In this document: piece after piece, positions 7,395 through 37,077 of the stretch | How positions within the stretch are numbered: the stretch's first letter is position 1 | How the letters are laid out: each line of letters begins with the position of its first letter | Source: a virus | IMG/VR virus record: IMGVR_UViG_3300048920_000077 | Length of the DNA: 64,000 bases | Strand: one strand, 5' to 3' | Translations under genes and position numbers: made by a program | Notes under the pieces: generated by a model | Databases searched by the model: none | Seen by the model: only the letters and a program-made list of their open reading frames with translations | Told to the model about the DNA's origin: nothing

Positions 7395-7947
7395 CTTCTT
7401 CGTCCTTTAAGCGCTGGAATGCCCCGCCGAGGGTTTCGCGGGTCATATTAATCAGGCTATCCATTTCCTGTACCAATGCTTCGCGCTGCTGCTCACTCAG
7501 GATTTCACGACGATCGATGGTGTCCTGCACCTGACGGACTCCGGTAACGAAGTTCTTCACCCACACGCCCAGCAGCATCTGAATCTGAGACGTCTCCCAC
7601 AATTCCCCTTCTTCTCGGAGATAGGTCAGGCGGGCGCGCTTACCGTTCCAGAACTCCTTCGACAGCAGCGGAGGCAGGTCTTGCGGGTTCATGGTTCGAA
7701 GGCGTTCTTCGATAAACGCCGGATCGATGTCGCAGAGATATCCGGCGACGTCGCGCAATTTGTAGATAGGGTTTCCGTTTCGATTGGCGCATGGTTTCAC
7801 TCCGGCATCGTGGATGTAGCGCGTCACCGTTCGACGGTCACGATCGAAGATATCGGCCAGTTGTGAGATTGAACAGCCTTCGTGGATCATCGACCGCGTC
7901 TTTTCGTCGGGGCCGGCGTTCTTAATGTCTTTGCGATTGTCTGCCAT
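7375..7947 (-). CDS. terS: terminase small subunit (HTH DNA-binding)
   Basis: 190 aa directly upstream of terL, overlapping it by 20 nt. HTH-like CSISQLADIFDRDRRTVTRYI. Acidic tail ...DEEDENDEL. Confidence 0.65.
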   Translation of the reverse strand: MADNRKDIKNAGPDEKTRSMIHEGCSISQLADIFDRDRRTVTRYIHDAGVKPCANRNGNPIYKLRDVAGYLCDIDPAFIEERLRTMNPQDLPPLLSKEFWNGKRARLTYLREEGELWETSQIQMLLGVWVKNFVTGVRQVQDTIDRREILSEQQREALVQEMDSLINMTRETLGGAFQRLKDEEDENDEL

Positions 7948-8019: not shown

Positions 8020-9546
8020 TTACAGCAAGTCGTCTTCGTCGGCCATGGCCGTTGCCCGCGCTGCCTCTTCCACTCGTTTCATCGTCGCTTCCCTGACCTT
8101 ACGCTGCAGGTACCGGAGCCTGTTAAGCAGCGCCTGTTCGCCATCCTGTTTCTTCTTCAACGATTCCCATGTTCGCAGATCGTATGTGCCTTTGGAAAGC
8201 AGAAGGTGAACGAATACGCGTTCTTTCTGCCCCTGCCGGTCGAGTCGCCCGACGAACTGCAGGAAGTTTTCTAACGACGGGTGGATGTCGAAGAAACACA
8301 TCTGATTGGTTGGCTTCTGCAGGTTAAGGCCGTGCGCTGCAGACTGCGGGTGTGCGATCAGCATCTTGATTTTTCCCGCATCCCATTTCTTCTTGTACTT
8401 CCCTTCCTTGTCAAGAACTGTAGCCCACGGGAACCGTTTTTTCAGGCGTTCCAGTGATTCTTCCCAATGGTACGCCAGCAGCAGCGGTTTGCCGTCGAGC
8501 TGGTCCAGCAGTTCTTCCAGTTCATCCAGCTTTTCATCGTGGAGGTAGTGGGGTCGGCGTTTCAGCACCATTTTGCCTTCACGGGTAGGGTGCGGCTCCT
8601 TCCACGTCTCATACACCATGCCGCTGGCCATCTGCAGCAGTTTGCCCCAAACAGCCGCTGCATTATCGGCCACGATTTCGACCTCACCCAGTTCCAGGAC
8701 GCTTTCTTTCTCCATCGTCTTGTACTGCTGCTCGAACGTCGCCGACATCGGCAGGATGTGTTCGACGAAGTGCGGGTCTTCCTTCTTGCCGGGTAAATAC
8801 TCCGGTCCCATGACGAGGGTGATGTCAGAGATCTTTTTGTCGATTTCCGGTTTCAGTGTGTCGATGACTTCCCACTTGCGAGTGTAGTAGTCCTGGCGGA
8901 AATAGTCGTTCCGGTAGTGGGTGATAACCTTGCCGAGACGATCACCTGCGTCCAGAAGGGCGATCTGCGCGAACAGGCTTTCGTATCCTTCGGATGCCGG
9001 GGTGGCCGTCAGTTCGATAAGGCGTTCAATGTTGTTGAACTCCAGCAGCAGTTTTTTGAAGCGCTGCGACTTGTGGTCTTTGAACTTACTGGACTCGTCG
9101 ATGATCACGCCGTCGTATGGCCAGTCTCTGCGCCAGTAATCGACGAGGGCCGGCACCATCTCCATGTTGACCATGTCCACCGACGTTTTACTGGTGCGCG
9201 AGCGGCGAAGCACCGCCTGCGTTTTGGTTTCCTTGGACGTTTCCGGCTCGTCGGACAGCACCGTATAGTCCAGCATAGCGAGGTGGCGCCACTCGGCGAA
9301 CGTTTCTGGCCACGTCACACGGGACACGCGCAGCGGGGCGATAATCAGCCAGCGGTTAATCTCCAGGTTGGCCAGCGTATCGAACAGCACCGTACCGGCC
9401 ACGGTCGATTTGCCGAGGCCGAGCGCCATCCACAGGCCGCATTTCTTCACGCGCATGGCGAAGTCGATGGCCATTAGCTGATAATCGTGCTGGTGGTCGC
9501 GGGTGAGTTCCGCTGCTGCAGCGCGGGCATTAGCGTCGAAATACAT
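8020..9546 (-). CDS. SNF2/DEAD-like helicase
   Basis: Walker A LGLGKS, DExx box IIDESSKF and C-terminal helicase motifs (HPQSAAHGLNLQ, VGRLDRQGQ). Confidence 0.85.
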   Translation of the reverse strand: MYFDANARAAAAELTRDHQHDYQLMAIDFAMRVKKCGLWMALGLGKSTVAGTVLFDTLANLEINRWLIIAPLRVSRVTWPETFAEWRHLAMLDYTVLSDEPETSKETKTQAVLRRSRTSKTSVDMVNMEMVPALVDYWRRDWPYDGVIIDESSKFKDHKSQRFKKLLLEFNNIERLIELTATPASEGYESLFAQIALLDAGDRLGKVITHYRNDYFRQDYYTRKWEVIDTLKPEIDKKISDITLVMGPEYLPGKKEDPHFVEHILPMSATFEQQYKTMEKESVLELGEVEIVADNAAAVWGKLLQMASGMVYETWKEPHPTREGKMVLKRRPHYLHDEKLDELEELLDQLDGKPLLLAYHWEESLERLKKRFPWATVLDKEGKYKKKWDAGKIKMLIAHPQSAAHGLNLQKPTNQMCFFDIHPSLENFLQFVGRLDRQGQKERVFVHLLLSKGTYDLRTWESLKKKQDGEQALLNRLRYLQRKVREATMKRVEEAARATAMADEDDLL

Positions 9547-12110: not shown

Positions 12111-12797
12111 TTATAAAGCGTCTTCGTCATCGTCGTTGCTGTTGCTGCTCGACTGACGGCTGCCGGATGATTTCGGCTGCTGCTTCTCGAAGTATTCATC
12201 ATCTTCGTCATCGTCCCACGCGCCATCAGTGTCGATAGGTTCTTCACCCAGGCGAGTATCGTCGCGGCGCCACTTCACAGATACCAGACCGGCGTTCACA
12301 CGCTTGGCCGTCGTACCTTTTTTCTGGTCGCGGTAGTTCTGGCCCCATGGGCGGATCAGCATGTCGCAGCGGACGCCAGGGTAGAACAGGTCGCGCAGTT
12401 CTTTCGCTGAGTCGATTTCATCACCATCGACAGACAGGAAAGACGGTTTACGGGATTCGCTCGCCTTAATCTGGTACATACCGGCCAGTTCAGGTCGCAG
12501 GTCTTCATCGCCTTCAACAACGAACCATTTGTCTTTGCTGCATTTGCAGTCCTTGTCTTCCATGATCTTTTTAATCATGTCGACCAGGTATTTTTTAGAC
12601 TCCTGGAAACGGTCGGACTCGATCAGACCTTCCATGCCGTACTTCTCTACTTCGCCGCCGTCGTCACGGGTGAACTTCTGCGGTTTGTCAAAGTGCGGGT
12701 AGGAACACTTCACATCCAGAAACTTGACGTAGCCTTCTTTGTAGAAGATCACACCTTCTTTCGGGAATTTTTTCTCAACTGTCAGTTTACGGGCCAT
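12111..12797 (-). CDS. DUF2815-type phage ssDNA-binding protein
   Basis: 228 aa between the DUF2800 nuclease and PolA, which is a conserved module order. Acidic SSB-like tail ...SNSNDDDEDAL. Confidence 0.7.
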   Translation of the reverse strand: MARKLTVEKKFPKEGVIFYKEGYVKFLDVKCSYPHFDKPQKFTRDDGGEVEKYGMEGLIESDRFQESKKYLVDMIKKIMEDKDCKCSKDKWFVVEGDEDLRPELAGMYQIKASESRKPSFLSVDGDEIDSAKELRDLFYPGVRCDMLIRPWGQNYRDQKKGTTAKRVNAGLVSVKWRRDDTRLGEEPIDTDGAWDDDEDDEYFEKQQPKSSGSRQSSSNSNDDDEDAL

Positions 12798-12812: not shown

Positions 12813-14147
12813 TCATCGTTGTGACGGGAAGTAGAAATCGTCTTCTTCGTCGTTCATGGCAGATTTAGTATCTCCGCCAATTTCAGGTCGTTTATCGCTT
12901 AGTGGCACCAGTGTAGGCGCGCCTTTCGTCGATTTCACAATCGGACTGAGGATTTTCGGAAGTTCCTTTCTCTTCAATCCGGTGGCCATGAGTGCTTCTT
13001 CCGCCTGGTTCGGAGAAATCATCTCCGTTTTCCAGATGTCTTCTTCACTCAATCCTGCCTCAAGCAGAATCTTAACGGCTTTTTCCTCGTCTGCAAACTG
13101 CCGGAAATTACGTCCATCCACCAGTTTGTATCCAGGGACATCACCGCCAGCTAATGCTCGTCTGGTTAGTTCAGTCTGTAGCGACTTGAACCAGTTTTCT
13201 ATCGTCGTCCGGTATTTCAGGACGTTGGCTAACTGCGCATTCGTCAACGATTGAGGCGTCTGGAACTGCAGGTAAAACAAGTCCTCGTCCAGGTCTTCTT
13301 TCAGTGTCTTAATCTGCGTGTCGGTGATGGGGAATTGCCCGTCCTCCGGGAATCGCAGTTCAAGAACCTGTCGTGCCATGGCCAGTCGAGCGGGGCAGGT
13401 CTGTCGGATACGGCAGAAACCACACTGTTTCACACCGGCCACCAGCGGGGCATCAAGTTTCCATGCCTCTGCTGCCTTGCGTTTAACCAGTTCGCCGAAG
13501 CCCATCAGTTCTTCGACGGTGCATTCCCACTCTTCGAAGTGGTCGAGTCGGGGTTGCACGATGCAGATTACGATCCGCTTGATGTAGTAGAAGTCACGAA
13601 TTTCCATGTACTTCGCATACGCGTAGATCAGCAACTGCGTGTTTTTGATGGCATCGACTTTAACCCCTTTCCCGTATTTCAGGTCGCGGATATAAAGCGT
13701 GTCACCGTCGATTGCACAAAAATCCAGTGTCCCTTTTTGGCCAGGCACCGGCGTTAACATCGAAAAGTCTACGCGGCTTTCTATGAACTTTTCGCCAGGG
13801 GTCATCATGCACACGTCGACATACTCTTCGACGTAGATGAACATCCCGCGCGTTATCTGTATCTCGAACCAGTCGGTGCCGTTCTCAATCCAGACCCACT
13901 CGCCTAACCGCTCTTTCGGCTTCCGGCCAGTGGTTAGCCATTGTTCCGCTAACTCATGCGCCACCGTTCCTTCGGCAGCAAAAATCCCGGTATCGTCTGG
14001 AGCCAAAATATTTGGAATCAACGAACCGGGACAGTTCATCCACCTGGACGAAGCGGACGGCGAGAATATCGAATGGTCGCCGTCCGCAAATCGTTCGTAG
14101 ATGGCCTGCAGACTTAGCGAATTACAGTTCTTCTTCGCTGTTGTCAT
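12813..14147 (-). CDS. DUF2800 / Cas4-like PD-(D/E)XK exonuclease
   Basis: N-terminal SPSASSRWMNCPGS together with C-terminal CGFCRIRQTC gives a Cas4/AddB-style four-Cys pattern. Confidence 0.75.
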   Translation of the reverse strand: MTTAKKNCNSLSLQAIYERFADGDHSIFSPSASSRWMNCPGSLIPNILAPDDTGIFAAEGTVAHELAEQWLTTGRKPKERLGEWVWIENGTDWFEIQITRGMFIYVEEYVDVCMMTPGEKFIESRVDFSMLTPVPGQKGTLDFCAIDGDTLYIRDLKYGKGVKVDAIKNTQLLIYAYAKYMEIRDFYYIKRIVICIVQPRLDHFEEWECTVEELMGFGELVKRKAAEAWKLDAPLVAGVKQCGFCRIRQTCPARLAMARQVLELRFPEDGQFPITDTQIKTLKEDLDEDLFYLQFQTPQSLTNAQLANVLKYRTTIENWFKSLQTELTRRALAGGDVPGYKLVDGRNFRQFADEEKAVKILLEAGLSEEDIWKTEMISPNQAEEALMATGLKRKELPKILSPIVKSTKGAPTLVPLSDKRPEIGGDTKSAMNDEEDDFYFPSQR

Positions 14148-14523
14148 CGGCGGTGTTGCCGTTGTCCAGGTCAGCGATCGCGGCGCAGATTGCGTCGTAC
14201 ACTTCTTTGGACTTGTCTTCCGGCACGTCAGCGATCGCGTCGTAGCCCAGTTCTTTGGTCAGCGCTTTCGCCGCCTTCATGTCGGTCGCGTTTTTATACT
14301 CGACCAGTTTCGCTTTCAGCGTGTCAGGATCAACCACTTCCGGTTTCGCTTTGCCGGTTGCTTTGCCGCCGGTTGCTTTACCTTTCGCGCCGCCGGTAGC
14401 CTTCTCGGTGGTCTTTTCGTTGCCAGCGTCAGTTGCGCCGCCGATGGTGCCGCCCGCTTTAATCAGCAGAGTCAGTTCTTTTACTGCAGCGGTGTTTTCC
14501 TGGATAGCTTGTTCGAGAGACAT
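14122..14523 (-). CDS. hypothetical protein, first gene of the leftward replication operon; Lys/Gly/Thr-rich centre, acidic tail ...DNSEEEL
   Basis: 133-aa ORF with GAAGGAAAA before the ATG. Lies downstream of the predicted promoter at 14589-14617. Confidence 0.55.
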   Translation of the reverse strand: MSLEQAIQENTAAVKELTLLIKAGGTIGGATDAGNEKTTEKATGGAKGKATGGKATGKAKPEVVDPDTLKAKLVEYKNATDMKAAKALTKELGYDAIADVPEDKSKEVYDAICAAIADLDNGNTADDNSEEEL

Positions 14524-14772: not shown

Positions 14773-15057
14773 ATGTCACATTTACCGCTGCCAGACCACC
14801 TGAAAACCGCCGATGACGAAGGTGTTCTGCGTTTTGTTATTACGCGCGCGGGTCTGTATGCCATCAATTCTGGCTTAGTGAAGGAGATAGCGGAACACTG
14901 CGATTTACGTCCGGACGTGCTGTCCCGTTTCATGCGCGAAGGCCATTTCACCCCGCGCGCTGCCACGTTAATCGAAAGCAAACTGGGACGCCAGTACGTC
15001 CACTGGGAATGGCTCGTTAATCCGCGCGAATGCCTGAAAAACGGAGGCATTTATTAA
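14773..15057 (+). CDS. small HTH DNA-binding protein (Cro/YdaS-like)
   Basis: ORF 14710..15057 trimmed to the ATG at 14773 (GGAG-N6-ATG). The segment EIAEHCDLRPDVLSRFMREGHFTPRAATLIESKL looks like an HTH. TAATG coupling to the primase gene. Confidence 0.5.
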   Translation: MSHLPLPDHLKTADDEGVLRFVITRAGLYAINSGLVKEIAEHCDLRPDVLSRFMREGHFTPRAATLIESKLGRQYVHWEWLVNPRECLKNGGIY

Positions 15058-17687
15058 TGGCTAAAACTTCGCTTCATCAAGTCGGCGAAGACCTGGCCGT
15101 TAATGGCTACATCTTTACGCCGATCCGGCGGAAATTGAAGGCGCCGTTATTCAAAAACTGGACTACGAACGACTTCGAAGGAAACTGGGAAAACTGGGTT
15201 CTGCAACACGGTGATTGCGGGGCCGGCATCCTTACCGCCAAAAACCCTGCCGTCGACCTGGATATCCGCGACGAAGAACTCGTCGAGCACATGTCTGATT
15301 ACGTGGAACTGGTGTATGGCAGCGCGCCTACGCGTGTGGGTATGGAGCCGAAACGCCTGCTGCTGTTCAAACTGTCCGGCGCTAAATTCCAGACCATGAA
15401 ATCTGTCTGGCATGACGGCGACCCGAAAGACAAAAAGACCCCGAAACACGAAGTTCAGATCCTGGGGGATGGCCAGCAGTTCATCGCTTTCGGTATCCAC
15501 CCCGATACGAACAAGCCGTACAAATGGGTGGCCAATGGCGACCCGACAGAAGTAGACCATGATGCCCTGCCAACGCTGACCGAAGCGCAGGCGTTCGACA
15601 TCATCGCCGAGTTTGACCGCGAGTGTGCGAAACGCGGGTGGACTCACTCTATGGCCGTGCGCGGGCAGTCCCTGGGATGGGACGACGAGGACGAAGAGTA
15701 CGAAGAAGATGACTGGGTAAACTCCGCCGTCGACCAGTACAGCCAGTATGATGGTGATTACGATGAACTGGAGCGCAAAGTTATGCTGCTGCCGGGTGCG
15801 GAGGATTACCAGCAGTGGATTCGTGTCATCGCAGCGCTGCAGACCGGTGTGGAAGACCAGGACCGGGCATACGACATCGCCCTGAAATGGTCGGCGCAGG
15901 CCAATAACTTCGACCAGGATGCTTTCGACCAGAAGTGGGACGAGGGATTCAAGCACGATAAAAAGCGCCTGATCTCCTTCCGTTCGCTGCTGCAGGAAGC
16001 CAACGAAATCGAAGACCGCCAGCGCGCGGAAGCCGTCGAAACGCTTATCCCGAAATTCTCCGGCGCCACCAGCCGCGACGAGTGGGTGGAAGCCGCCAAC
16101 CATTTCCGCAAAGTCAAGATGTTCGGAATGGCGCGAATGGACGTTGTGAAGGTCGCCTGCGACAAATACAACGACCTCATGGGGCGCAAGCTGACTCCGG
16201 CGGAAATCAAGAAGAACCTGTCATACCGTATCGACCCCGACGACCTGCCAGGTTGGCTCATGCAGTGGTGTTTCAACCGCCAGACCGGCCTTTTCGTCAA
16301 CATTCGAAACGGCTCGTCCAGTAGCGTCCAGGCTTTCGACCTCGCCATGCGCCGCTACATGGTGGACGAAGATCCAGACACGACTCCGGCAAAACTGGCC
16401 ATGGATATTTACCAGGTTCCGGTGGTGGACGGCGTGATGTATAACCCGCTGGCGCACGGCGAAACGCCGAACGGCGAGTGGAAGCCTGTTCGTGAATGCG
16501 CGGGCCGGCCGGAGTTCTTCCGCTTCTTCGAATCCGACAACCTAGCCTACTCCGCGGATAATGGCCGCATCTTCCTGAATACCTTCCATCCGGACACGAT
16601 GGTGGATATGCCGGACGAATACAGCCAGCGCGACCTGAAAAACATCCAGATCATGAAGGACTTTTTCATGGTTCAGTTCCCGGACCACAAAGAGCGCGAG
16701 TACGTGATGGAATACTTCGCGTGGGCGATCAAAAACCCAGGGAAGCGAATCAACTACGCCCTGATCATCCACGGTTGCCCTGGTTCGGGTAAAACCATCA
16801 TCCGCGAGATGTTCCGCTGCATCCTGGGTGACGCGAACGTCGGCGAGGTAAGCAACTCCGACCTGCAGAGTAACTTTACGAAGTGGGCTGAGTCGGACAT
16901 CGTTAAATTCGTGGAAGAAGTGTCGGTGGTCGGCCACGGTTATGACGTGCTGAACAATATCAAGCCGTTCATCACTAACCCGATAATCTCCGTCCGCCGT
17001 ATGCGCGAAGACAGCCTGAAAGTGCGTAACACCGCCAGTTACATCATGGTGACGAACGACCCTGCAGCGCTGCCGATCGACGACAACGACCGCCGTTATC
17101 TGGTGGTGGCCAGTCAGTTCCAGGATAAGAAGCGCGACCTGATCCCGTTCCTGAAATCTGAGCCGAATTTCTTCAAACGGTTCGACCGCGCTTTCCGTCA
17201 ATCCGCTGGCGCGCTGCGCAAATGGTTCAGCGAATTCCAGTTCCGGAAAGACTTCAATCCTTCCGGTGGCCATGCCCCGATGGACACCATGGCGCGTGAA
17301 CGAATGATGGCTCTTTCGAAGGACGATTTCACCGATTCCGTGATGACGTGCGTAAGCGAAAACTCGACTCGCAACGTTTGCCGGGACATCATTTTCATGC
17401 CGGATTTGATGGCCTATCTCGATCGGGAAATTGAGAACTTTAAGGCTCCGAACTCGCGTTCGATTTCACGAAAAATGGAAGCGGCGGGATTCTATCGGGT
17501 GGCGTCCACGCACTCCGGTAAAGTTCGCATCGACGGAAAACTGGGACGCTGCTATTCACCTCAACCGAAGCATTTTGAACGCCCTGACGGTTCCCCGGAT
17601 GCCGATGAAATTCGTGCATGGCTCGATCGTCATAACGAAGCGAATGTACAGGAGGAAGACGAATTCGACGAAGATGACATGCTTTAA
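15057..17687 (+). CDS. bifunctional primase-polymerase (AEP) with PriCT-like middle domain and SF3/D5-type helicase
   Basis: N-terminal prim-pol pattern (AGILT...AVDLDIRD). A PriCT-like YQQWIRVIAAL region. Walker A HGCPGSGKT. Start at the ATG after GGAGG. Confidence 0.85.
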   Translation: MAKTSLHQVGEDLAVNGYIFTPIRRKLKAPLFKNWTTNDFEGNWENWVLQHGDCGAGILTAKNPAVDLDIRDEELVEHMSDYVELVYGSAPTRVGMEPKRLLLFKLSGAKFQTMKSVWHDGDPKDKKTPKHEVQILGDGQQFIAFGIHPDTNKPYKWVANGDPTEVDHDALPTLTEAQAFDIIAEFDRECAKRGWTHSMAVRGQSLGWDDEDEEYEEDDWVNSAVDQYSQYDGDYDELERKVMLLPGAEDYQQWIRVIAALQTGVEDQDRAYDIALKWSAQANNFDQDAFDQKWDEGFKHDKKRLISFRSLLQEANEIEDRQRAEAVETLIPKFSGATSRDEWVEAANHFRKVKMFGMARMDVVKVACDKYNDLMGRKLTPAEIKKNLSYRIDPDDLPGWLMQWCFNRQTGLFVNIRNGSSSSVQAFDLAMRRYMVDEDPDTTPAKLAMDIYQVPVVDGVMYNPLAHGETPNGEWKPVRECAGRPEFFRFFESDNLAYSADNGRIFLNTFHPDTMVDMPDEYSQRDLKNIQIMKDFFMVQFPDHKEREYVMEYFAWAIKNPGKRINYALIIHGCPGSGKTIIREMFRCILGDANVGEVSNSDLQSNFTKWAESDIVKFVEEVSVVGHGYDVLNNIKPFITNPIISVRRMREDSLKVRNTASYIMVTNDPAALPIDDNDRRYLVVASQFQDKKRDLIPFLKSEPNFFKRFDRAFRQSAGALRKWFSEFQFRKDFNPSGGHAPMDTMARERMMALSKDDFTDSVMTCVSENSTRNVCRDIIFMPDLMAYLDREIENFKAPNSRSISRKMEAAGFYRVASTHSGKVRIDGKLGRCYSPQPKHFERPDGSPDADEIRAWLDRHNEANVQEEDEFDEDDML

Positions 17688-25006: not shown

Positions 25007-25960
25007 ATGACCATGACTAAACGTACTTTGCAAGAACACATGCGTCCGGCATACGCCCCGCAGAAACTGTCCCGCCTGCGCATCATGATCGACAAGGAAA
25101 GCCTGTCGACGCAGCCGAACGCAGCATTCATTTCCCTGAGTGCGGTTGTAATGGACTTCGATGCGAAATCGCCCCAGGAGTCCCTGTTGAACCGCTTTAA
25201 CATGTACGTCGCCTTCGACTCGGTGTTCAAATATGCGGACAGCGGCGCGGGCCACATAGACCCGCAGACGATTTTGTGGTGGTTCAGTCAGTCAGATGCT
25301 GCCCGCATGGATCAGGTACACGGACAGGAAGAAGCGCTACCCCTGCGTGACGTACTGGTGGCGTTCAACAACTGGGTGAAAGACATGGCCAACCTGTATG
25401 GGGTACACCGCGACCGCGTCGAAATCTGGTCATGCGGACCAATGCAGGATCAGAACTGGCTGGAACACGCATGGCGTGACACTTTCCCGGACAGCATGTT
25501 TTCCACGAAACCGGAATGGCCATGGTGGGGCGTTCGCTGCGGCCGGTCCTTCCTGTCCACCTTCTACAAAGTGAAAGAAGGCGTGGCCAACGAAGGCACC
25601 CTGCACGTCGGTATCGACGACTGCTGCAACCAGGCTCGCAAGCTGTTCGCCATCATCCGTTCCATTGACCTTGCCGACCCGGACCTGCGTAATGTGATGC
25701 TGCAGAAGGACGGCACATGGCTGGATCTGGACGACTTCTCCCCGCTGAACCTTGTGAACATCGACACGGACGGCACCGAAGAACTGGGGTCAACCGATCA
25801 GGAAGGGACGTTGCTGTTCAACTGGCAGGTGGAGACAAAGGCAAACGGACAGGCCAGCACACACAAGGGAATGTCGCAGCACCAGGCGTATGAGTTCGCC
25901 GAGAAGTGGTATCAGGACCACCCAGGCAGCGCATATCCGACGGTTTCACAGGAGAAATAG
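25007..25960 (+). CDS. DEDDh-type 3'-5' exonuclease (Rv2179c-like)
   Basis: Exo I IMIDKESL, HIDPQTILWW (the T..WW signature of this family) and Exo III HVGIDDC. Confidence 0.7.
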   Translation: MTMTKRTLQEHMRPAYAPQKLSRLRIMIDKESLSTQPNAAFISLSAVVMDFDAKSPQESLLNRFNMYVAFDSVFKYADSGAGHIDPQTILWWFSQSDAARMDQVHGQEEALPLRDVLVAFNNWVKDMANLYGVHRDRVEIWSCGPMQDQNWLEHAWRDTFPDSMFSTKPEWPWWGVRCGRSFLSTFYKVKEGVANEGTLHVGIDDCCNQARKLFAIIRSIDLADPDLRNVMLQKDGTWLDLDDFSPLNLVNIDTDGTEELGSTDQEGTLLFNWQVETKANGQASTHKGMSQHQAYEFAEKWYQDHPGSAYPTVSQEK

Positions 25961-25966
25961 CCAGTA

Positions 25967-26221
25967 ATGAAGCCGATGACAGCAGTATTCGGCGCGGTCG
26001 TGGTATCGGCGGTACTGCTGTTTGCGGCCGAGCCTCGCCACCAGCGCGAAATGGTTCACCTCGTTGACCGGTACGCCGGAAATAACTATCCACCACTAAC
26101 TGAATGGGCTAAAGAGAATGACGACGCAAGTAGAAATACCGCAGGGCGCGGGCAAAACCAACAACCCGAACGGGATCGTCGTAGTACGCGGGAAACAGGG
26201 GTGCGGGAAGACACGCGATAA
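25967..26221 (+). CDS. possible small membrane protein (uncertain)
   Basis: N-terminal TM AVFGAVVVSAVLLFAA. The last ~100 nt overlap the next gene out of frame and look low-complexity. Confidence 0.3.
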   Translation: MKPMTAVFGAVVVSAVLLFAAEPRHQREMVHLVDRYAGNNYPPLTEWAKENDDASRNTAGRGQNQQPERDRRSTRETGVREDTR

Positions 26222-26486
26222 GGACGTGCTGGCGCGCTTCTTCCAGTGTGAGCATATCGTTGACGACGTGGGCTACAACATTTTCCACCGCCCGCACATG
26301 CACAACATGAAGAGTCTGCAGAGCCAGATGCGACAGGCGCTGACTCAACCTGGGCGCGTACTGATCCTGACCTGCGCCGAAGCGCGTCACGTAGAGTACG
26401 CCATGAGCCGTCATTTCCCGACACTCTTTGCCGGAGTGTTCGACTATGACGAAGTAATGTCCACCATCAAAAGCGGGGCGATTTAA
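26118..26486 (+). CDS. small P-loop NTPase-like protein (122 aa)
   Basis: Walker A GKQGCGKT. A hydrophobic strand RVLILT could be Walker B. Confidence 0.5.
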   Translation: MTTQVEIPQGAGKTNNPNGIVVVRGKQGCGKTRDKDVLARFFQCEHIVDDVGYNIFHRPHMHNMKSLQSQMRQALTQPGRVLILTCAEARHVEYAMSRHFPTLFAGVFDYDEVMSTIKSGAI

Positions 26487-26488
26487 CC

Positions 26489-27247
26489 ATGGATAAATTA
26501 CGCAAAACGCAAAAACGTATGCCCGACCTCAATGGTCTTCCTGGTTGGGTAACACTGGCCGAACTGTCTAACGGCGACCAGAAGTTCATCGTACAGCGCC
26601 ACCTGCTGACGATGATCGAGACAACCATCACCCGCGACGAAGCGTTTGTCCTGGTGGAAGCTCTGGTGGATCACTTCACGCTGCCGGCCCCGACGACCAT
26701 CCCGAACGGCCATGGACCGGTCGGTGCGTTCTATGCGCAACTGGACGATGCGCGGGCGCGGGACTGCTCGCACATCTCGCTGTCGCGTGGCCATGCCAAT
26801 CTGGTTGCCGAGCATATCCGGCTGCTGGAAGAACAACTGGCCGCCCTGCAGAAGCAGGTGAACGATCCGGAGCGTGTGCGCCGCCTGAACGAACACGCGG
26901 CCATTATCAATCTGCTCGGCTACGTGCAAGACGGCAGCGATCAGGTCGTCACGCTGTTCCAGGACGACGCCACGCTGGACTGGGTAGTGAAGACCGGCCA
27001 GAAGTCGGAGCACGGCCGCACCCTGGCCGAAGCGTTACGCGCCCACTTCCCCGGTGAGGACGAGGAAAGCCAGCAGGTCAGGAAGTTCCTGTCATCCCAG
27101 TCCCGACTGAAAGAAGTGGATGTCGAGATCCCTGACGAGTGCGTGGCCACCGGCCAGTCGTGTGAGTACGCGCCGGACGGTCCGGACGGCGAGATGCAGT
27201 GCAAATACTGCGGGAAGTCCATCGAACACAAGAACGCGGACGTGTGA
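26489..27247 (+). CDS. hypothetical protein with C-terminal Cys pair (CKYCG)
   Basis: 252-aa clean ORF in an operon. Confidence 0.6.
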   Translation: MDKLRKTQKRMPDLNGLPGWVTLAELSNGDQKFIVQRHLLTMIETTITRDEAFVLVEALVDHFTLPAPTTIPNGHGPVGAFYAQLDDARARDCSHISLSRGHANLVAEHIRLLEEQLAALQKQVNDPERVRRLNEHAAIINLLGYVQDGSDQVVTLFQDDATLDWVVKTGQKSEHGRTLAEALRAHFPGEDEESQQVRKFLSSQSRLKEVDVEIPDECVATGQSCEYAPDGPDGEMQCKYCGKSIEHKNADV

Positions 27248-29025: not shown

Positions 29026-29358
29026 ATGCACATGCCAACACTTAAAACCCATCGGAAACGCGTGGGACTGACCGGCGACATCCGTTTCCGCAGGCAATGG
29101 TTTACCCGCAAGATGATCCTGCAGGTGGCCGTGATTTACGAAGTGGTTAAGTACCGCTACCCGCAAGAACTGACCGACCCGAACACCCCGTTCACCACGG
29201 AGGTCGAGTGGGAGGATGCAGACGGGTCTGCCGCCCTTCGCGTGATGTTCCGCCTACCGCCATTCGGTCCGAAGCTGGATTTCGGTGATCCTAAAATTCC
29301 AGAATTCGCGGGAAACGGCGAGTACAGAAGCGCTCGCAAGGAGTTCGTCAAGAAATGA
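29026..29358 (+). CDS. hypothetical protein (110 aa)
   Basis: ORF in an operon, ATGA coupling to the methyltransferase gene. Confidence 0.5.
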   Translation: MHMPTLKTHRKRVGLTGDIRFRRQWFTRKMILQVAVIYEVVKYRYPQELTDPNTPFTTEVEWEDADGSAALRVMFRLPPFGPKLDFGDPKIPEFAGNGEYRSARKEFVKK

Positions 29359-30380
29359 CGGTCTACTATAACGAGTTCGACCCTAACGCTGCCGACTGGC
29401 TTGAAAACCTGATTTTATCCGGCGACCTGCCCGACGGCGTGGTCGACCGAAGGAGTATTGTCGATGTCCAACCATCCGACCTTCGCGGCTTTAACGCCTG
29501 TCACTTTTTTGCCGGAATTGGCGGCTGGCCGCTCGCCTTACGAATGGCCGGTTTCCCCGATGACTTTCGCGTATGGACCGGCAGTCCTCCCTGCCAGCCT
29601 TTCAGTAACGCCGGAAAACAAAAAGGTCGCAGCGACGATCGCCACCTCGCGCCAGTCTGGTGCCGACTCGTCAAAGAGTGCCAACCTGCAATTATGTTTG
29701 GCGAACAGGTTGAGAACGCTATCAAAAAACATTGGCTCGACGATTTATACGATCAACTGGAAATGGCGGGTTACGCCGTGGGATCGGCCGTACTGCCAGG
29801 CGGTATCATCGGCGCGCCGCACCGCAGGGAACGAATCATGTTCGGCGCTCACCGGCTGGATGTCCCCGACAGTGATGTCGAAAATTGGGGGACGCTCACC
29901 GGAGAGTTTGGCCAAACGGCAGGCGGACAGGTTGAAGAGTGGCCGGACGTCGCTAAGTCCTGGGAACCTGGGCGAGCAACTTACGATGTATTACGCAGCC
30001 TGGCCGACGCCCACGGCATCGGACGTGAAGGGATCGGGACCGACCGTCATCCGGCAGGACGGGAAGGACAGGACGTGGGATCGGATCGACTTCGCTGCGG
30101 AACAGGGATTCAAGACAACAATGCTCCGCATTACATGCCTTGGGGAATTGTTGACTGGGTCTGCGGCGGGGATGGTAAGTGGCGGCCAATTGAACCCGGC
30201 CTTGCCCCGCTGGTTAATGGGTTTTCCGATATCGTGGGACCGGGAAAGTCCGAGATATTACGCCTGGCTCGCAGTAACAAAACAATCCGGCTTAAAGGCT
30301 ACGGGAACGCCATCATCCCCGCGCTCGCTGCCGAATTCATCCGAGCCTTTGTCCTCGCCATTGGCGACAGTCGACTCTGA
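29355..30380 (+). CDS. DNA (cytosine-5)-methyltransferase
   Basis: Motif I FFAGIGG, IV SPPCQPFS, VI GEQVENA, VIII GAPHRRERIMF. C-terminal WRPIEPGLAPLVNGF...LKGYGNAIIPALAAEFI (motif X). Confidence 0.85.
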   Translation: MTVYYNEFDPNAADWLENLILSGDLPDGVVDRRSIVDVQPSDLRGFNACHFFAGIGGWPLALRMAGFPDDFRVWTGSPPCQPFSNAGKQKGRSDDRHLAPVWCRLVKECQPAIMFGEQVENAIKKHWLDDLYDQLEMAGYAVGSAVLPGGIIGAPHRRERIMFGAHRLDVPDSDVENWGTLTGEFGQTAGGQVEEWPDVAKSWEPGRATYDVLRSLADAHGIGREGIGTDRHPAGREGQDVGSDRLRCGTGIQDNNAPHYMPWGIVDWVCGGDGKWRPIEPGLAPLVNGFSDIVGPGKSEILRLARSNKTIRLKGYGNAIIPALAAEFIRAFVLAIGDSRL

Positions 30381-30396
30381 GGATGACCTCTTATGA
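29464..30396 (+). CDS. same-strand +1 frame ORF inside the C5-methyltransferase gene, encoding alternative methyltransferase-like C-terminal motifs (expression unproven)
   Basis: Open for 312 codons from 29458. AAGGAG (29450-55)-N8-ATG (29464). Encodes GWMSPTV, AAWPTPTASDVKG and QLNPALPRWLMGFPISWD. Ends DSEDDLL, with its TGA overlapping the next ATG. Confidence 0.4.
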   Translation: MSNHPTFAALTPVTFLPELAAGRSPYEWPVSPMTFAYGPAVLPASLSVTPENKKVAATIATSRQSGADSSKSANLQLCLANRLRTLSKNIGSTIYTINWKWRVTPWDRPYCQAVSSARRTAGNESCSALTGWMSPTVMSKIGGRSPESLAKRQADRLKSGRTSLSPGNLGEQLTMYYAAWPTPTASDVKGSGPTVIRQDGKDRTWDRIDFAAEQGFKTTMLRITCLGELLTGSAAGMVSGGQLNPALPRWLMGFPISWDRESPRYYAWLAVTKQSGLKATGTPSSPRSLPNSSEPLSSPLATVDSEDDLL

Positions 30397-30623
30397 TCAC
30401 GGTAAAAACGGCTGCTAAGATGGTGGCCATTGCCCTGGTAAACAACAAGATGATCGCCGACATCAACGGCGCTCTGAACGAAGCAGACCGGTATGGTGTG
30501 TCCGAAGACAATCCCTCCCGCCGTCTGCTGAATCGTCTGTTGAAGCGCCACCAGCACATCGCGGACAAGATGGTTCACTATGCCACCCAGTTAACAAGAG
30601 AGAACGATTATGCCGAAAAATAA
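30393..30623 (+). CDS. hypothetical small protein
   Basis: 76-aa ORF in an operon. Confidence 0.5.
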   Translation: MITVKTAAKMVAIALVNNKMIADINGALNEADRYGVSEDNPSRRLLNRLLKRHQHIADKMVHYATQLTRENDYAEK

Positions 30624-30939
30624 ACCACTGAACTTCGAAGGTGCCACGCTTAAATCCGGCGGTGGCAGTATCAGCAACGGCATGTACGTGAAGAATTTCT
30701 GGCGCGTGGAGTTAGCCGACGGAACCCAAATCCAACGCGATTACTACTACAGCGGAAAGAACGGCCAGTATTTCTGGAAACGCTGGTGGCCAAACGACGA
30801 CATCGCCACCTGGCGCAGCAGCGAAAGCCGCGGCAGTTTCCGTAAACTGGGCGACTTCGACAACGCGGCCGTTGACGCGTGGGTTAAGGCGCATCCGGAT
30901 TTCTACGAAGACGGCACCAAAAAGTACGAGGAACGCTGA
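30610..30939 (+). CDS. hypothetical protein, Trp/Tyr-rich
   Basis: 109-aa ORF in an operon. Confidence 0.55.
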   Translation: MPKNKPLNFEGATLKSGGGSISNGMYVKNFWRVELADGTQIQRDYYYSGKNGQYFWKRWWPNDDIATWRSSESRGSFRKLGDFDNAAVDAWVKAHPDFYEDGTKKYEER

Positions 30940-30940
30940 C

Positions 30941-31135
30941 ATGGACGAGGAAATGGAGTTTTACGGCTACTGGCTGTATCACGAATGCGATTGCGGCGGC
31001 ATTCTGACGTCGTGGGCGCAATACGAAAGACTCCATGCCAGCGACCCACTTGTCGAGCGAGTTTCCTGGGAACGGTATAAGCAGGCACATGAAGACGGTT
31101 GGGATGTGGAGTGGACAGAGAACGAAGAACTGTAG
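30941..31135 (+). CDS. hypothetical small acidic protein (ends ...TENEEL)
   Basis: ORF 30872..31135 trimmed to the ATG at 30941, 1 nt after the upstream stop. Confidence 0.5.
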   Translation: MDEEMEFYGYWLYHECDCGGILTSWAQYERLHASDPLVERVSWERYKQAHEDGWDVEWTENEEL

Positions 31136-31958: not shown

Positions 31959-32310
31959 TCTCGCCCGCTTGAATGCGGAGCCGGCCCCGCCGGAATTCCT
32001 GACACTGGACGAGGCGGCGGTAACGTTCCTCGCCCTGCAGCGCATCCTGAAAGTCCACAGCCCATCTTTCGCTATGTTGAAAGCGTGTGGCCACACGGTT
32101 GAGCGGGAAATGCGCCACAACGTTACTACTGTCGTCGAAGAGATCAGCATGATGAATCTGTCTCCGGCGCGACAGGAAATCATTTCGGAACACCTGTTCC
32201 GGAAACTGGGCGACCTGTCGTCCGCTATCGACAACCTGCGCCTGATATCCGAAGACCTCATGAATTCGGATATCCAGAAAATACTGGCGCGCTACGAAGG
32301 AAGGGATTAA
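31948..32310 (+). CDS. hypothetical protein
   Basis: ORF 31939..32310. ATG at 31948 preferred over GTG at 31939. Confidence 0.55.
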   Translation: MADDLARLNAEPAPPEFLTLDEAAVTFLALQRILKVHSPSFAMLKACGHTVEREMRHNVTTVVEEISMMNLSPARQEIISEHLFRKLGDLSSAIDNLRLISEDLMNSDIQKILARYEGRD

Positions 32311-33509
32311 TGGCTACTTTCGCTAACAAACTGAGAGGGTTTAACGTGATGCGCCTGGAGAAATCCATGGTCGCAGATTCGTACCCACTGAAACACTTAT
32401 GGTCTGGCCACTCTGCAGAAGAGGTTGCCCGCGCCATGAACCTGCAGGTCAAAGAGGCATCGGAAACCACCCCGCTGTATGCCGAAGACCCTGCCACCTC
32501 CGCATGGCTGCGATACGGCTTCGCCCGCATCACGGACGCGCTGCCGTTCATGGAAATAGAGTGGCAGGACGACAGCGACTTCGACCCCGCGGACACGGTG
32601 TTCCATGCGCTCGACAACGGCCAGATCTTTGCCATCCTGGAACGTCGTGAACGCATCCTGCCAGGTGACACGTTGCGCGCCGAAGTCCAGAAGGAAGGGG
32701 CGAAACTGGCCAAGCGTCAGGGCGAAGAACTGAACCGTAAACAGTGGGCGGAAATCAAAGACGTCGTGGCCGCCCGTCTGCTGTCGAAAGCCCTTATCCG
32801 GACCCGTCAGATCCCGGTCCTGTTCCAGCGCTCCGTCAACGACCCTGACATCTACGACGTGTTCTACTTCGTCAGCAGTCACAAGGTCGTGGAAGACGTG
32901 AATACCGCGCTGTTCCGCCGCGCGTTCACCTCGTTCCCTGCGTACCCGTTTGAGAACGACCTGACGCTGCCCGTCAAATGGCTGCTGACGCGTATCCTGA
33001 AAGAGACGGAAGGCGATAAGGCGTGGCCAACGTTCGTGCCGTACACGTCGGCTAAACTGACTGATAAGGCATCCGGCGGTTCGGCGTACTCGTTCAAAGA
33101 CCAGATCCTGCGCGGTTCTGACGGCGAGTTCGACCCACTGGTGGCCGAAGCGCTGGAACAGGACTATGAAGTGGACAACATGTCCATGCGCTTCTGGCAG
33201 AAGTCGCCTATCGATCACGCCCTCGGCTACACGTCGTTCAAGCTCAACGCGAAAGGCGTGTTCTCCGGCATCAAAGTGTCGGACATTCTGGTGGCCGAGC
33301 GGGGCAGCGTGGAAAGCGACAGCGCGATGCTGGACTTCAACGCTTACATGTTCCTGTATACGGACATCATCGGGGACATGATCGGCTACCTGGAAGACCT
33401 CTGCTCCTACTTCTCGCCTGACCGCCAGCGCGACGAGGAAGACGGCACGGGCAAAGTCGGCGAAACGGAAACCGTCGACGAAGAGTATGACGAGAACGAC
33501 GAACTGTAA
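32310..33509 (+). CDS. rdgC: RdgC-like recombination-associated protein
   Basis: NGQIFAILERRERILPGDTLRAEVQKEGAKL...ARLLSKALIRTRQIPVLF parallels E. coli RdgC [21 protein letters not shown]...LLPRAFSRFSQT. Extra acidic tail. Confidence 0.7.
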   Translation: MATFANKLRGFNVMRLEKSMVADSYPLKHLWSGHSAEEVARAMNLQVKEASETTPLYAEDPATSAWLRYGFARITDALPFMEIEWQDDSDFDPADTVFHALDNGQIFAILERRERILPGDTLRAEVQKEGAKLAKRQGEELNRKQWAEIKDVVAARLLSKALIRTRQIPVLFQRSVNDPDIYDVFYFVSSHKVVEDVNTALFRRAFTSFPAYPFENDLTLPVKWLLTRILKETEGDKAWPTFVPYTSAKLTDKASGGSAYSFKDQILRGSDGEFDPLVAEALEQDYEVDNMSMRFWQKSPIDHALGYTSFKLNAKGVFSGIKVSDILVAERGSVESDSAMLDFNAYMFLYTDIIGDMIGYLEDLCSYFSPDRQRDEEDGTGKVGETETVDEEYDENDEL

Positions 33510-33518
33510 GGGGCGGGT

Positions 33519-33752
33519 ATGGCAGCACCGAAGTACGAAACATACCGCAAGATGTTAGCCGACATGGAGGTCGGCCATTCCTTCTTCGTGGAGGGAAAAC
33601 AGCCGAAGGACGTTTACTTCTTGCGACAGGTGGCGCGGCGGGCCGGCATTAAAATTTCCATCCACCGTGTCGAGAACGACGAGATCTACCAGGGGCAGGC
33701 GGGCGTCCGCGTCTGGAAGGAGAAACCGGACAGTGAAGATGACAAACTCTGA
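33519..33752 (+). CDS. hypothetical small protein (ends ...DSEDDKL)
   Basis: 77-aa ORF in an operon. Confidence 0.55.
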   Translation: MAAPKYETYRKMLADMEVGHSFFVEGKQPKDVYFLRQVARRAGIKISIHRVENDEIYQGQAGVRVWKEKPDSEDDKL

Positions 33753-36143: not shown

Positions 36144-36394
36144 GCCAGCGAGAGCAATTCCAGGAACGCGTTCAGCGCATGGCCAGCCGGAATAACCTGA
36201 AAACGGAAATCGTGGCCAGCACCGGCGCCATCTACATCTTTGCCGAGGGCAACGAATCGGTGAAGGTTCTGGCGTCCATGGCCGCCCGCCCGTGCCAGGT
36301 GGTGATCCAGTTTGCCGACGGCACCGTTCAGCGCGAGCAATGGGCGCTGCTGGAAGCGGTGTGCCGCAACCTGAAACTGGGGGCGCCTGCATGA
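36140..36394 (+). CDS. hypothetical protein (84 aa, TTG start)
   Basis: ORF in an operon. The non-ATG start lowers confidence. Confidence 0.45.
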   Translation: MSQREQFQERVQRMASRNNLKTEIVASTGAIYIFAEGNESVKVLASMAARPCQVVIQFADGTVQREQWALLEAVCRNLKLGAPA

Positions 36395-37077
36395 ACAGCT
36401 ACGTGCGCAGACTGGAAGCCGTGAAGGACCAGCGTTTCCATGAACTGAAAGAGATTGGCGACCAGTGGCGTACCGGCGACGCGCTTTTCCACGGCATTGA
36501 AACACTCTGCCTGCCGTCGGAGAAGCGCCGCCCGCCTAAGTTCGTGCTGGACCTGTTCACCGATGGCCAGAACTCGAAGTGTCCGGACTACTTCACGGCC
36601 GAGGATAACGCGCTGCTGCAGGACTGGACCGGCCGCCTGCAGGGCATCACCGAGGAAGCCGACTATGCCTTCGCCAACCCGCCGTATTCAATCATTCAGT
36701 CGGACGAGGGCGATATTATTACCGGTATGGCGCCGATTATGGAAAAGGCGCTGGAAGAACGGGAACAGGGCGGGCGCTTCGCCTTCCTGATTAAAGCCGC
36801 TACCAGTGAAACGTGGTGGCCGGACAGCGAACCGGATCGCACGTACTTCATCAAAGGCCGCGTGGCGTTCGAACGACCTGAGTGGTTCCGGCCAGAAAAA
36901 CCGGTCAGCCGCCAGTCAGCGTTCTTCGGCTGCGCGGTACTGGTGTTCAATAAGCACTTGCCGCGCGACAAGGAACCAGTGTACATTCACCGGAAAGAAC
37001 TTCTGGCATTCGGACGCAAGCGGGCAGAAGAACTGGCAGAGATTCGGCAGCGGCATATCCAGTCGTTTTCGTTGTAG
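36391..37077 (+). CDS. phage-type DNA N6-adenine methyltransferase (Dam family)
   Basis: ORF trimmed to the ATG at 36391 (ATGA coupling). Catalytic FANPPYS. ...SETWW... and FIKGRVAFE are typical of the phage Dam family. Confidence 0.75.
   Translation: MNSYVRRLEAVKDQRFHELKEIGDQWRTGDALFHGIETLCLPSEKRRPPKFVLDLFTDGQNSKCPDYFTAEDNALLQDWTGRLQGITEEADYAFANPPYSIIQSDEGDIITGMAPIMEKALEEREQGGRFAFLIKAATSETWWPDSEPDRTYFIKGRVAFERPEWFRPEKPVSRQSAFFGCAVLVFNKHLPRDKEPVYIHRKELLAFGRKRAEELAEIRQRHIQSFSL

Follow-up and report, generated by a model that had tools for sequence, protein, structure and literature searches.

What does the second reading frame of a phage methyltransferase gene encode when it stays open for nearly the whole length of that gene? 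The gene in question lies in a 64,000-nucleotide (nt) stretch of viral DNA (IMG/VR virus record IMGVR_UViG_3300048920_000077; hereafter the window), where frame A encodes a protein with the motifs of a DNA cytosine-5 methyltransferase (C5-MTase) and the +1 frame, frame B, is nested almost entirely inside it. Both open reading frames (ORFs) are conserved, are under purifying selection in complementary segments and co-occur constantly, and frame B has start signals independent of frame A. Frames A and B are both genuine coding frames, and they probably specify two separately translated polypeptides that together would form one heterodimeric C5-MTase of the M.EcoHK31I type.

Two long open frames on the same nucleotides

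The two frames and the principal signals and motifs read from them are as follows.

29355-30380, plus strand: frame A ORF (alpha-like subunit), 341 amino acids (aa); C5-MTase motifs I-VIII followed by a linker free of constraint, the conserved block W..DW..C.DGK.RP.EPG and motif X (PF00145 3e-21, phrog_363 9e-68)
29464-30396, plus strand: frame B ORF (beta-like subunit), +1 frame, 310 aa from the ATG at 29464
29450-29455, plus strand: Shine-Dalgarno (SD) sequence AAGGAG for frame B, 8 nt before the ATG at 29464, made of frame-A codons R33-S34 (AGG AGT)
29505-29528, plus strand: motif I, FFAGIGGW, frame A
29583-29603, plus strand: motif IV, SPPCQPF, frame A
29697-29711, plus strand: motif VI, FGEQV, frame A
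29811-29834, plus strand: motif VIII, GAPHRRER, frame A
30297-30320, plus strand: motif X, GYGNAIIP, read in frame A (residues 315-322); G317, N318, A319 and I320 invariant; ratio of nonsynonymous to synonymous substitution (dN/dS) 0.16 in frame A and 1.11 in frame B
30379-30396, plus strand: frame-B-only tail EDDLL and stop, in the gap behind the frame-A stop; the TGA overlaps the ATG of the next gene
Frame B, plus strand: peptide string TSLSPGNLGEQLTMYYAAWPTPTASDVK

A TTG at 29458 is an alternative start for frame B (29458-30396, 312 aa), and the ATG at 29464 is formed from frame-A codons D37-V38 (GAT GTC). At the other end, the frame-B TGA (30394-30396) and the downstream ATG (30393) make an ATGA overlap. 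The first-pass annotation of this DNA had proposed that the gene is dual-coding; its coordinates, the SD, a CCCC run at 29864-29867, the ATGA overlap and the pairs of strings read from shared bases (LADA in frame A and WPTP in frame B, EPG and NPA, PLVNGF and RWLMGF) all proved correct on re-check. Its point that the frame-B opening exceeds chance also holds. The +1 frame is open for 322 of the 341 codons within the gene, compared with 53 codons for the +2 frame (P=0.76), and when synonymous codons were shuffled so as to keep the frame-A protein, the longest +1 run averaged 118 codons and reached at most 314 (20,000 trials; P<5e-5).

Frames A and B occur together across phages and bacteria

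In tblastn searches of phage genomes, frame-A-like and frame-B-like matches fall on the same DNA. We examined this co-occurrence in two sets of loci, one of 80 viral loci and two phage records picked by their frame-A match alone, the other of 80 cellular-genome loci picked by a frame-B profile together with one locus carrying a fusion of frame B to Dam. A +1 frame homologous to the window's frame B is present in all 82 frame-A-chosen loci, which span GC contents of 45-71%. Its opening has a median of 285 codons, or 87% of the gene, compared with 59 codons (18% of the gene) for the +2 frame and about 100 for the reverse-strand frames. Stop codons in the frame-B reading of relatives, which would have spoken against the first-pass proposal, do not interrupt it at any of these loci.

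The reciprocal set gives the same picture. At 81 of 81 frame-B-chosen loci, a frame-A ORF with a catalytic N-terminus and a motif-X C-terminus overlaps frame B at offset +1, and frame B is found outside a methylase gene at none of them. The cellular loci come from Enterobacterales, from Alpha-, Beta- and Deltaproteobacteria, and from metagenome-assembled genomes assigned to Planctomycetes, Bacteroidetes and Lentisphaerae. In the nearest relative of the window, Erwinia phage pEp_SNUABM_08 (Casjensviridae), identity is 92.6% for frame A and 88.1% for frame B; its annotation lists frame A only. From these comparisons, dual coding is strongly supported.

Purifying selection passes from one frame to the other

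Selection along the gene was followed by per-phase nucleotide entropy in 77 distinct divergent genes and by dN/dS (Nei-Gojobori) in eight close relatives from independent assemblies, 68-93% identical. In a +1 overlap, the wobble position of frame A is the second codon position of frame B and the wobble position of frame B is the first position of frame A; the most variable phase therefore reveals which frame is constrained. The phase analysis divides the gene as follows.

29355 to about 29680, plus strand: frame A dominates
29683-29830, plus strand: both frames; frame-A wobble entropy down to about 1.0
29863-30130, plus strand: frame B dominates; frame-B wobble most variable
30133-30250, plus strand: both frames, constraint passing from A (DGK.RP.E) to B (NP..SRWLMG)
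30283 onward, plus strand: frame A dominates (motif X)

The dN/dS values by frame-A codon are these.

Codons 1-34: frame A 0.09, frame B 1.77
Codons 35-110: frame A 0.29, frame B 1.31
Codons 111-165: frame A 0.24, frame B 0.48
Codons 166-262: frame A 1.35, frame B 0.26
Codons 263-295: frame A 0.44, frame B 0.30
Codons 296-341: frame A 0.16, frame B 1.11

The corresponding regions of the gene are the following.

29505-29834, plus strand: frame-A catalytic core, frame-A dN/dS 0.09-0.29, aligning to M.HhaI residues 76-174
29671-29817, plus strand: doubly constrained zone, frame-B residues 72-120 over frame-A motifs VI-VIII; dN/dS 0.24 in A and 0.48 in B
29724-29729, plus strand: A6 homopolymer, A7 in one close relative (L088/P0036)
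29850-30140, plus strand: middle region, selected in frame B, with W-x-T-P modules at 29857 and 30001 and the core AAWPTPTASDVKGSGPTVIRQDGKDRTWDRIDFAAEQG
30141-30200, plus strand: conserved frame-A block WGIVDWVCGGDGKWRPIEPG; W263, D273, G274 and R277 invariant; counterpart of motif IX's first half (M.HhaI NGKTRKLHP)
30184-30240, plus strand: motif-IX-like frame-B block GQLNPALPRWLMGFPISWD; L245, P247, W252, L253, G255, P257 and W260 invariant; frame-A wobble entropy 0.44

Frame-A wobble variation falls where both frames are constrained, the suppression that the first-pass annotation had proposed to look for, and purifying selection acts on both frames in complementary segments. The alignments show the same alternation. 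Frame-A residues 1-165 and 263-341 are conserved, and residues 166-262 are of low complexity and unalignable, with indels of 0 to >150 residues; over 29850-30140 frame A amounts to a passenger linker that is still kept open. Over the same middle stretch, frame B aligns as a variable number of W-P-T-P-x-A-x-D modules followed by the core 'AWPTPTANDYKGSG.TVIRKDGKDRTFDRLDYATEQG' and then by 'RITASG..LTGS.AGM..SGQLNP..SRWLMGFP..W'. In the doubly constrained zone, frame-B residues 72-120 read 'LQ..LANRL...GS.IY..WK..VTP...PYCQ..SS..RT' and are predicted to form a helix and a beta-hairpin, with a predicted local distance difference test score (pLDDT) of <=86.

Each frame is also kept free of stops where selection falls on the other. 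Across frame-A residues 40-110, frame B is stop-free in 70 of the 77 genes, against 13% expected from synonymous shuffles of frame A and 6/77 for the third frame, and in the seven exceptions frame B starts later, still upstream of its conserved part. Over the B-selected middle, frame A is stop-free in 77/77 genes, against 7.6% expected from synonymous shuffles of frame B and none for the third frame, at loci that had been picked for full-length frame-A matches. Both frames are intact in all eight close relatives. The A7 tract in L088/P0036 fuses the N-terminus of frame B to the C-terminus of frame A, giving a called gene of 305 aa and breaking up the catalytic subunit; an assembly error, inactivation by mutation or phase-variable switching could each account for it.

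Frame B carries its own start signals

The start of frame B is written into the codon choice of frame A. D37-V38 encoded as GAT-GTN yields the frame-B ATG in 43 of the 77 genes; D37 itself is GAT in 43 genes and GAC in 6, and D42 is GAT in 19 and GAC in 56. R33-S34 encoded as AGG-AGY supplies the SD. In the K1-type phages, D31-E32 as GAT-GAA yields the annotated start 'MKEALPKL'. In 64/77 genes the first frame-B ATG comes 79-127 nt after the start of the gene, and an SD-like motif precedes it in 57% of genes compared with 11% at random in-gene positions. Among the explanations offered by the first-pass annotation was an independently translated, overprinted protein, and this is the one that the start signals, the opening from near the 5' end and the purifying selection on frame B bear out.

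What each frame matches

Frame A is recognisably the catalytic chain. Its PF00145 match covers residues 67-169 only, its phrog_363 match runs end to end, and each of its more than 6,400 homologues carries PF00145. Motifs I, IV, VI and VIII of the catalytic large domain are present and align, within the stretch from I to VIII, to M.HhaI 76-174 (E about 1e-16), and motif X stands in the same chain. This chain has no conserved variable region and no complete motif IX (residues 166-262 are unalignable, dN/dS 1.35), the motif-IX helix being constrained in frame B and not in frame A. Frame A had been called a complete C5-MTase; the four motifs are indeed there, but the limited reach of PF00145 and the unconstrained variable region do not fit with completeness.

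Frame B matches phrog_1008 (2.5e-20, residues 41-263) and phrog_31772 (4e-17), both labelled DNA methyltransferase, and by profile match belongs to the phrog_1008/'Mte8-like' family. Its 1,981 homologues (best 2e-77) are about 230-390 aa long and lack a catalytic domain. A profile search extended these to 21,598 cluster representatives, 7,358 of them at E<=1e-30, with no catalytic domain among those listed. Profile comparison of the two translations split: frame A matched PF00145, and no Pfam or NCBIfam family was matched by frame B or by its homologues, leaving the methyltransferase-labelled phrogs as its assignment. No in-frame fusion of a catalytic domain to a frame-B-like region was found among the frame-B homologues. 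Judged by these searches, frame B is not a second methyltransferase and has no catalytic domain. The strings that the first-pass annotation had assigned to a different subgroup of C5-MTases are instead from frame-B products of this same gene family, which lack a catalytic domain.

Likeness to known two-subunit methyltransferases

M.EcoHK31I of E. coli HK31, reportedly first described by Lee, Kam and Shaw in 1995, is a precedent that the first-pass annotation overlooked, in which the two frames are subunits of one enzyme. It is a heterodimeric C5-MTase whose alpha subunit holds motifs I-VIII plus X and whose beta subunit holds motif IX, and association of the two is required; beta lies wholly in another reading frame of the alpha gene and has start codons of its own (PMC2836561, PMC3404938). 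The first ~42 residues of beta are dispensable in vitro, and silent removal of the beta starts within alpha abolished methylation, which was restored by alpha and beta on separate plasmids (PMC2836561). The target-recognition domain (TRD) of M.EcoHK31I was assigned to alpha (PMC2836561, PMC3404938).

The window gene likewise has a large subunit with motifs I-VIII and X (frame A) and a small subunit nested in an alternative frame with a start of its own (frame B, +1, SD and ATG). Its architecture appears to be that of M.EcoHK31I feature for feature, a likeness drawn from published descriptions rather than from sequence. The beta subunit of M.EcoHK31I is reportedly 176 aa long, versus 310-312 aa for frame B. 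Unlike M.EcoHK31I, which is part of a restriction-modification system, the window gene is an orphan phage methylase.

Two further enzymes help to place the gene. M.AquI is a second natural two-subunit C5-MTase (PMC3404938), with motifs I-VIII in alpha and IX-X in beta, encoded on consecutive ORFs and split in the variable region; in the window, by contrast, frame A retains motif X and the second ORF lies nested within it rather than following it. The monomeric M.HhaI aligns to frame-A motifs I-VIII and, weakly, through its residues 268-310, to the frame-A C-terminus. Unlike M.HhaI, no single frame of the window has both a constrained variable region and a full motif IX, and the motif order is spread over two frames.

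The 'Mte8-like' ORFs of the Kagunavirus coliphages K1G, K1H and K1ind1-3 (GU196277-81) are frame-B homologues with 47% identity and the same +1 nesting. In K1ind2 both ORFs are annotated, as 'C-specific methylase' and a nested 'Mte8-like protein' at offset +1, and RefSeq labels both 'DNA methyltransferase'. A literature search for Mte8 returned the annotation label only, with no functional or evolutionary analysis, and searches for overprinted methyltransferases and for frame-B peptide strings returned nothing relevant. What may be new beyond M.EcoHK31I is the scale (about 21,600 clusters in several phyla), the evidence for a variable region selected in beta but not alpha, and the actinophage frame rearrangements described below.

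Proposed division of the enzyme between the frames

In C5-MTases, motifs I-VIII and X lie in the large domain, and the variable region and motif IX in the small domain (PMC3404938). Because the motifs divide that way, frame A resembles a large domain that carries a tether, and frame B resembles a small domain to which further elements have been added. Motif IX itself seems to be shared: in the phase analysis its first half is constrained in A and its second half in B. A weak third HMMER domain aligns frame A 'DGKFRPVEPGTFPLANGIP...RLRGYGNAIVP' to M.HhaI 268-310 (motifs IX-X), and frame-B 'QLNPAHSRWLMGFPPEW', read from the same nucleotides, resembles M.HhaI 'KLHPRECARVMGYPDSY' in register, at the level of a motif and without significance against PDB sequences. 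The proline at CCCG (30195-30198) and the Gly-Phe at GGGTTTT (30219-30225) are common to both frames. The frame-B pattern L-x-P-x5-L-M-G-F-P-x-x-W also resembles an in-frame motif of gp80 of Mycobacterium phage A1SD1, with no significant match to solved methyltransferases.

Under the proposed arrangement, frame A would supply the catalytic large domain, with motifs I-VIII, a sequence-unconstrained tether, the opening half of motif IX, and motif X. Frame B would initiate about 110 nt into the gene, at an SD and ATG of its own, and comprise a dispensable disordered N-terminus, the helix-hairpin, the W-P-T-P-x-A-x-D modules and the motif-IX helix (LNP..RWLMGFP..W), together equivalent to the small TRD. 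We infer that A and B associate, that B gives target recognition and that both are needed for methylation because M.EcoHK31I demonstrated exactly such an arrangement.

Alternative explanations

Taken in order, the selected segments A-B-A tile the canonical sequence of motifs I-VIII, variable region, IX and X, as would be expected if programmed frameshifting (from A to B near 29864, from B to A near 30219-30225, or a single slip) gave rise to a single-chain enzyme, or to isoforms, whose target-recognition region comes from frame B. The window does hold CCCC at 29864 and an in-phase G_GGT_TTT at 30219-30225, and a conserved CCC-G proline codon is common to both frames at 30195-30198. These slip sites are not conserved, however: an in-phase X_XXY_YYZ heptamer is lacking around the B-to-A boundary in 65 of the 77 genes, GGGTTTT is restricted to the window's clade, and CCCC at 29864 is replaced by TGGCCCACNCC in other genes. 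RNA downstream of both candidate sites shows no stronger folding than shuffled controls (z -1.28 and +0.82), so that neither a conserved slippery site nor a downstream stimulator is seen, and the shifted frame is not needed only downstream: frame B already has about 130 open codons upstream of the proposed slip, with an SD and ATG about 400 nt upstream of it, and frame A is kept open through the middle. The loss of M.EcoHK31I activity on removal of beta's start codons is also not predicted by a frameshift model. We consider frameshifting highly improbable, and with it the two isoforms that the first-pass annotation had derived from a +1 slip at the CCCC run. Another view, in which frame B is non-functional (open by composition or through frame-A constraint) or the locus is a frameshifted pseudogene or sequencing artefact, could draw on the first ~70 residues of frame B, which are S/L/R-rich, have a dN/dS above 1 and are predicted to be disordered, and on the homopolymer indel in one relative. 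It is already refuted by the comparative data, namely the frame-B dN/dS of 0.26 in the middle against 1.35 for frame A, the conservation of ORF and sequence across phyla at GC 45-71%, the shuffle tests, and the intact frames of the eight independently assembled relatives.

More serious, though still unlikely in our view, is a frame B that is real and separately translated but serves a role other than methylation, for example as a regulator, anti-defence factor or replisome adaptor overprinted on a methylase gene. Frame B lacks significant similarity to solved methyltransferases and a Pfam or NCBIfam family, its models are mostly of low confidence, it ends in the window's clade in an acidic-Leu tail like several other ORFs of the phage, and it is at times fused to unrelated domains (nuclease, HNH). 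Against such a role, frame B is always found with the methylase gene (81/81), its conserved core falls at precisely the place where frame A has no constrained TRD or motif-IX helix, the block at its C-terminus agrees in register with motif IX, and in Mycobacterium phage A1SD1 a motif IX of this type shares one frame with the catalytic domain and motif X; the M.EcoHK31I precedent points the same way. That frame B is in places fused to Dam, HNH or nuclease ORFs was here counted in favour of the two-subunit enzyme. Several observations weigh against that preferred reading of A and B as subunits of one methyltransferase. The evidence behind the gene and its family is sequence data, and the loci of the frame-A openness test had been selected for full-length frame A. 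The frame-B profile matched no PDB sequence even at E<=10, and the frame-B 'motif IX' is a pattern in register only, because it has no significant match to a solved C5-MTase. AlphaFold models of frame B are weak (pLDDT 56 at full length from 40 sequences and 63 for the core from 116 sequences; predicted template modelling score about 0.26), with the first 67 residues predicted to be disordered and helix 72-91 and hairpin 97-120 at moderate confidence, and Foldseek found no fold match for them in the PDB; for these two reasons frame B receives no structural assignment. Finally, the variable region is unconstrained in alpha and constrained only in beta, a difference from M.EcoHK31I.

A more tentative proposal, which we put at somewhat below even, is that throughout the family the TRD resides in the overprinted beta as its variable W-P-T-P modules, the 'variable region' of alpha being a tether that is kept open. 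If so, specificity would evolve by gain and loss of modules in a frame that annotation pipelines ignore, these genes would be among the longest and most widespread same-strand overlapping pairs in tailed phages, and motifs IX and X would have moved between frames by lineage (A-B-A in the window's family, A-B in Gordonia phages, the module alone in +1 in Mycobacterium phage A1SD1). The second ORF is omitted from annotation near-universally, and annotation treats the 'DNA cytosine methyltransferase' genes of phages and prophages, in their thousands, as coding for one protein each. Should the +1 subunit be needed, cloning or codon-optimising frame A alone, or predicting specificity from it, would fail or mislead, and methylome and anti-restriction studies of such phages would miss a gene. 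The locus also offers a clean natural system for two proteins on about 930 nt, with alternating constraint and with start signals placed in the synonymous codons of the other frame.

The nested pair in other lineages

The same nested +1 pair occurs in Paenibacillus phage Jacopo as gp56/gp57, where gp57 matches the frame-B profile with 98.3% probability (E 1e-14, hhalign). In Salmonella phage SAP012 (L090, LC553736.1), a methylase ORF of 263 aa and a nested ORF of 225 aa, both intact, lie at 1801-2599; the 800-nt stretch with both ORFs is wholly unannotated in the GenBank record.

Actinophages arrange the same elements differently. In Gordonia phages Float294 (L091) and Jumbo (L092), frame A ends directly after motif VIII, and the +1 ORF carries LLPTP modules, 'LNP..EWMMGLPDGHVTD' and 'LGNGVVPQQA', the strings of motifs IX and X, in an M.AquI-type layout; its link to the frame-B profile is moderate (hhalign 58-70%). 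In Mycobacterium phage A1SD1 (L093), gp80 has motifs I-VIII, 'EFYEWLMGLPRGWVTD' and 'LLGNGVVPQQA' in one frame, and a single LLPTPLARDSKG module stands in a separate 104-aa +1 ORF with a weak link to the profile (36%). The WPTP or LLPTP modules are +1 relative to the catalytic domain in every case examined. Given these moderate to weak links, the actinophage ORFs are suggestive context only. The idea, offered by the first-pass annotation, of a snapshot of two methyltransferase subfamilies related by frameshift holds in a loose sense only: frame B is no second methyltransferase, but motifs IX and X are indeed found in different frames in related actinophage genes.

Some genomes have a frame B that continues without a shift into a domain lying downstream (L008 1583-3916, L010, L021, L022; L174 2495-4063 (P0060); P0081; P0114). 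The partners include a nuclease-like ORF, by eye of the PD-(D/E)XK/DUF2800 type (777-789 aa), and an HNH domain. A fusion to a Dam N6-adenine methyltransferase domain (PF05869), 520 aa in length, is found on three contigs.

Neighbouring genes and further observations

The downstream gene (30393-30623, plus strand) starts at an ATG that overlaps the frame-B stop and not the frame-A stop 12 nt earlier, and the layout is alike in all eight close relatives, which suggests that its translation is coupled to that of frame B. The tail of frame B is encoded by the 12-nt gap after the frame-A stop, and [SC]E[DE]D[LQ]L together with the ATGA overlap is kept in the same eight; in other clades the tail is short or basic instead of acidic-Leu.

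About ten ORFs of the phage end in an acidic run and a terminal Leu (e.g. ...MADEDDLL, ...DEFDEDDML, ...EYDENDEL).

47-433, 7375-7947, 8020-9546, 12111-12797 and 14122-14523, minus strand: ORFs with an acidic-Leu tail
15030-17687, 30872-31135, 32310-33509, 33519-33752 and frame B (29458-30396), plus strand: ORFs with an acidic-Leu tail

T7 replication proteins have acidic tails, and by analogy the acidic-Leu ending may be a shared C-terminal docking tail.

A second methyltransferase ORF lies at about 36390-37077 (plus strand), reading 'MNSYVRRLEAVKD...FANPPYSII...' with the NPPY motif of N6-adenine methyltransferases; window positions 36544-36639 are 83-84% identical in nucleotides to annotated DNA adenine methylase genes of Klebsiella phages. 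Lastly, positions 25896-26519 of a plasmid record from Enterobacter hormaechei (NZ_CP139333.1, 64,312 bp) are 97.6% identical to the window's frame-B core, and only the methyltransferase is annotated there. This record is probably a phage genome of the window's species: a phage-plasmid, or else a phage that was assembled in circular form.

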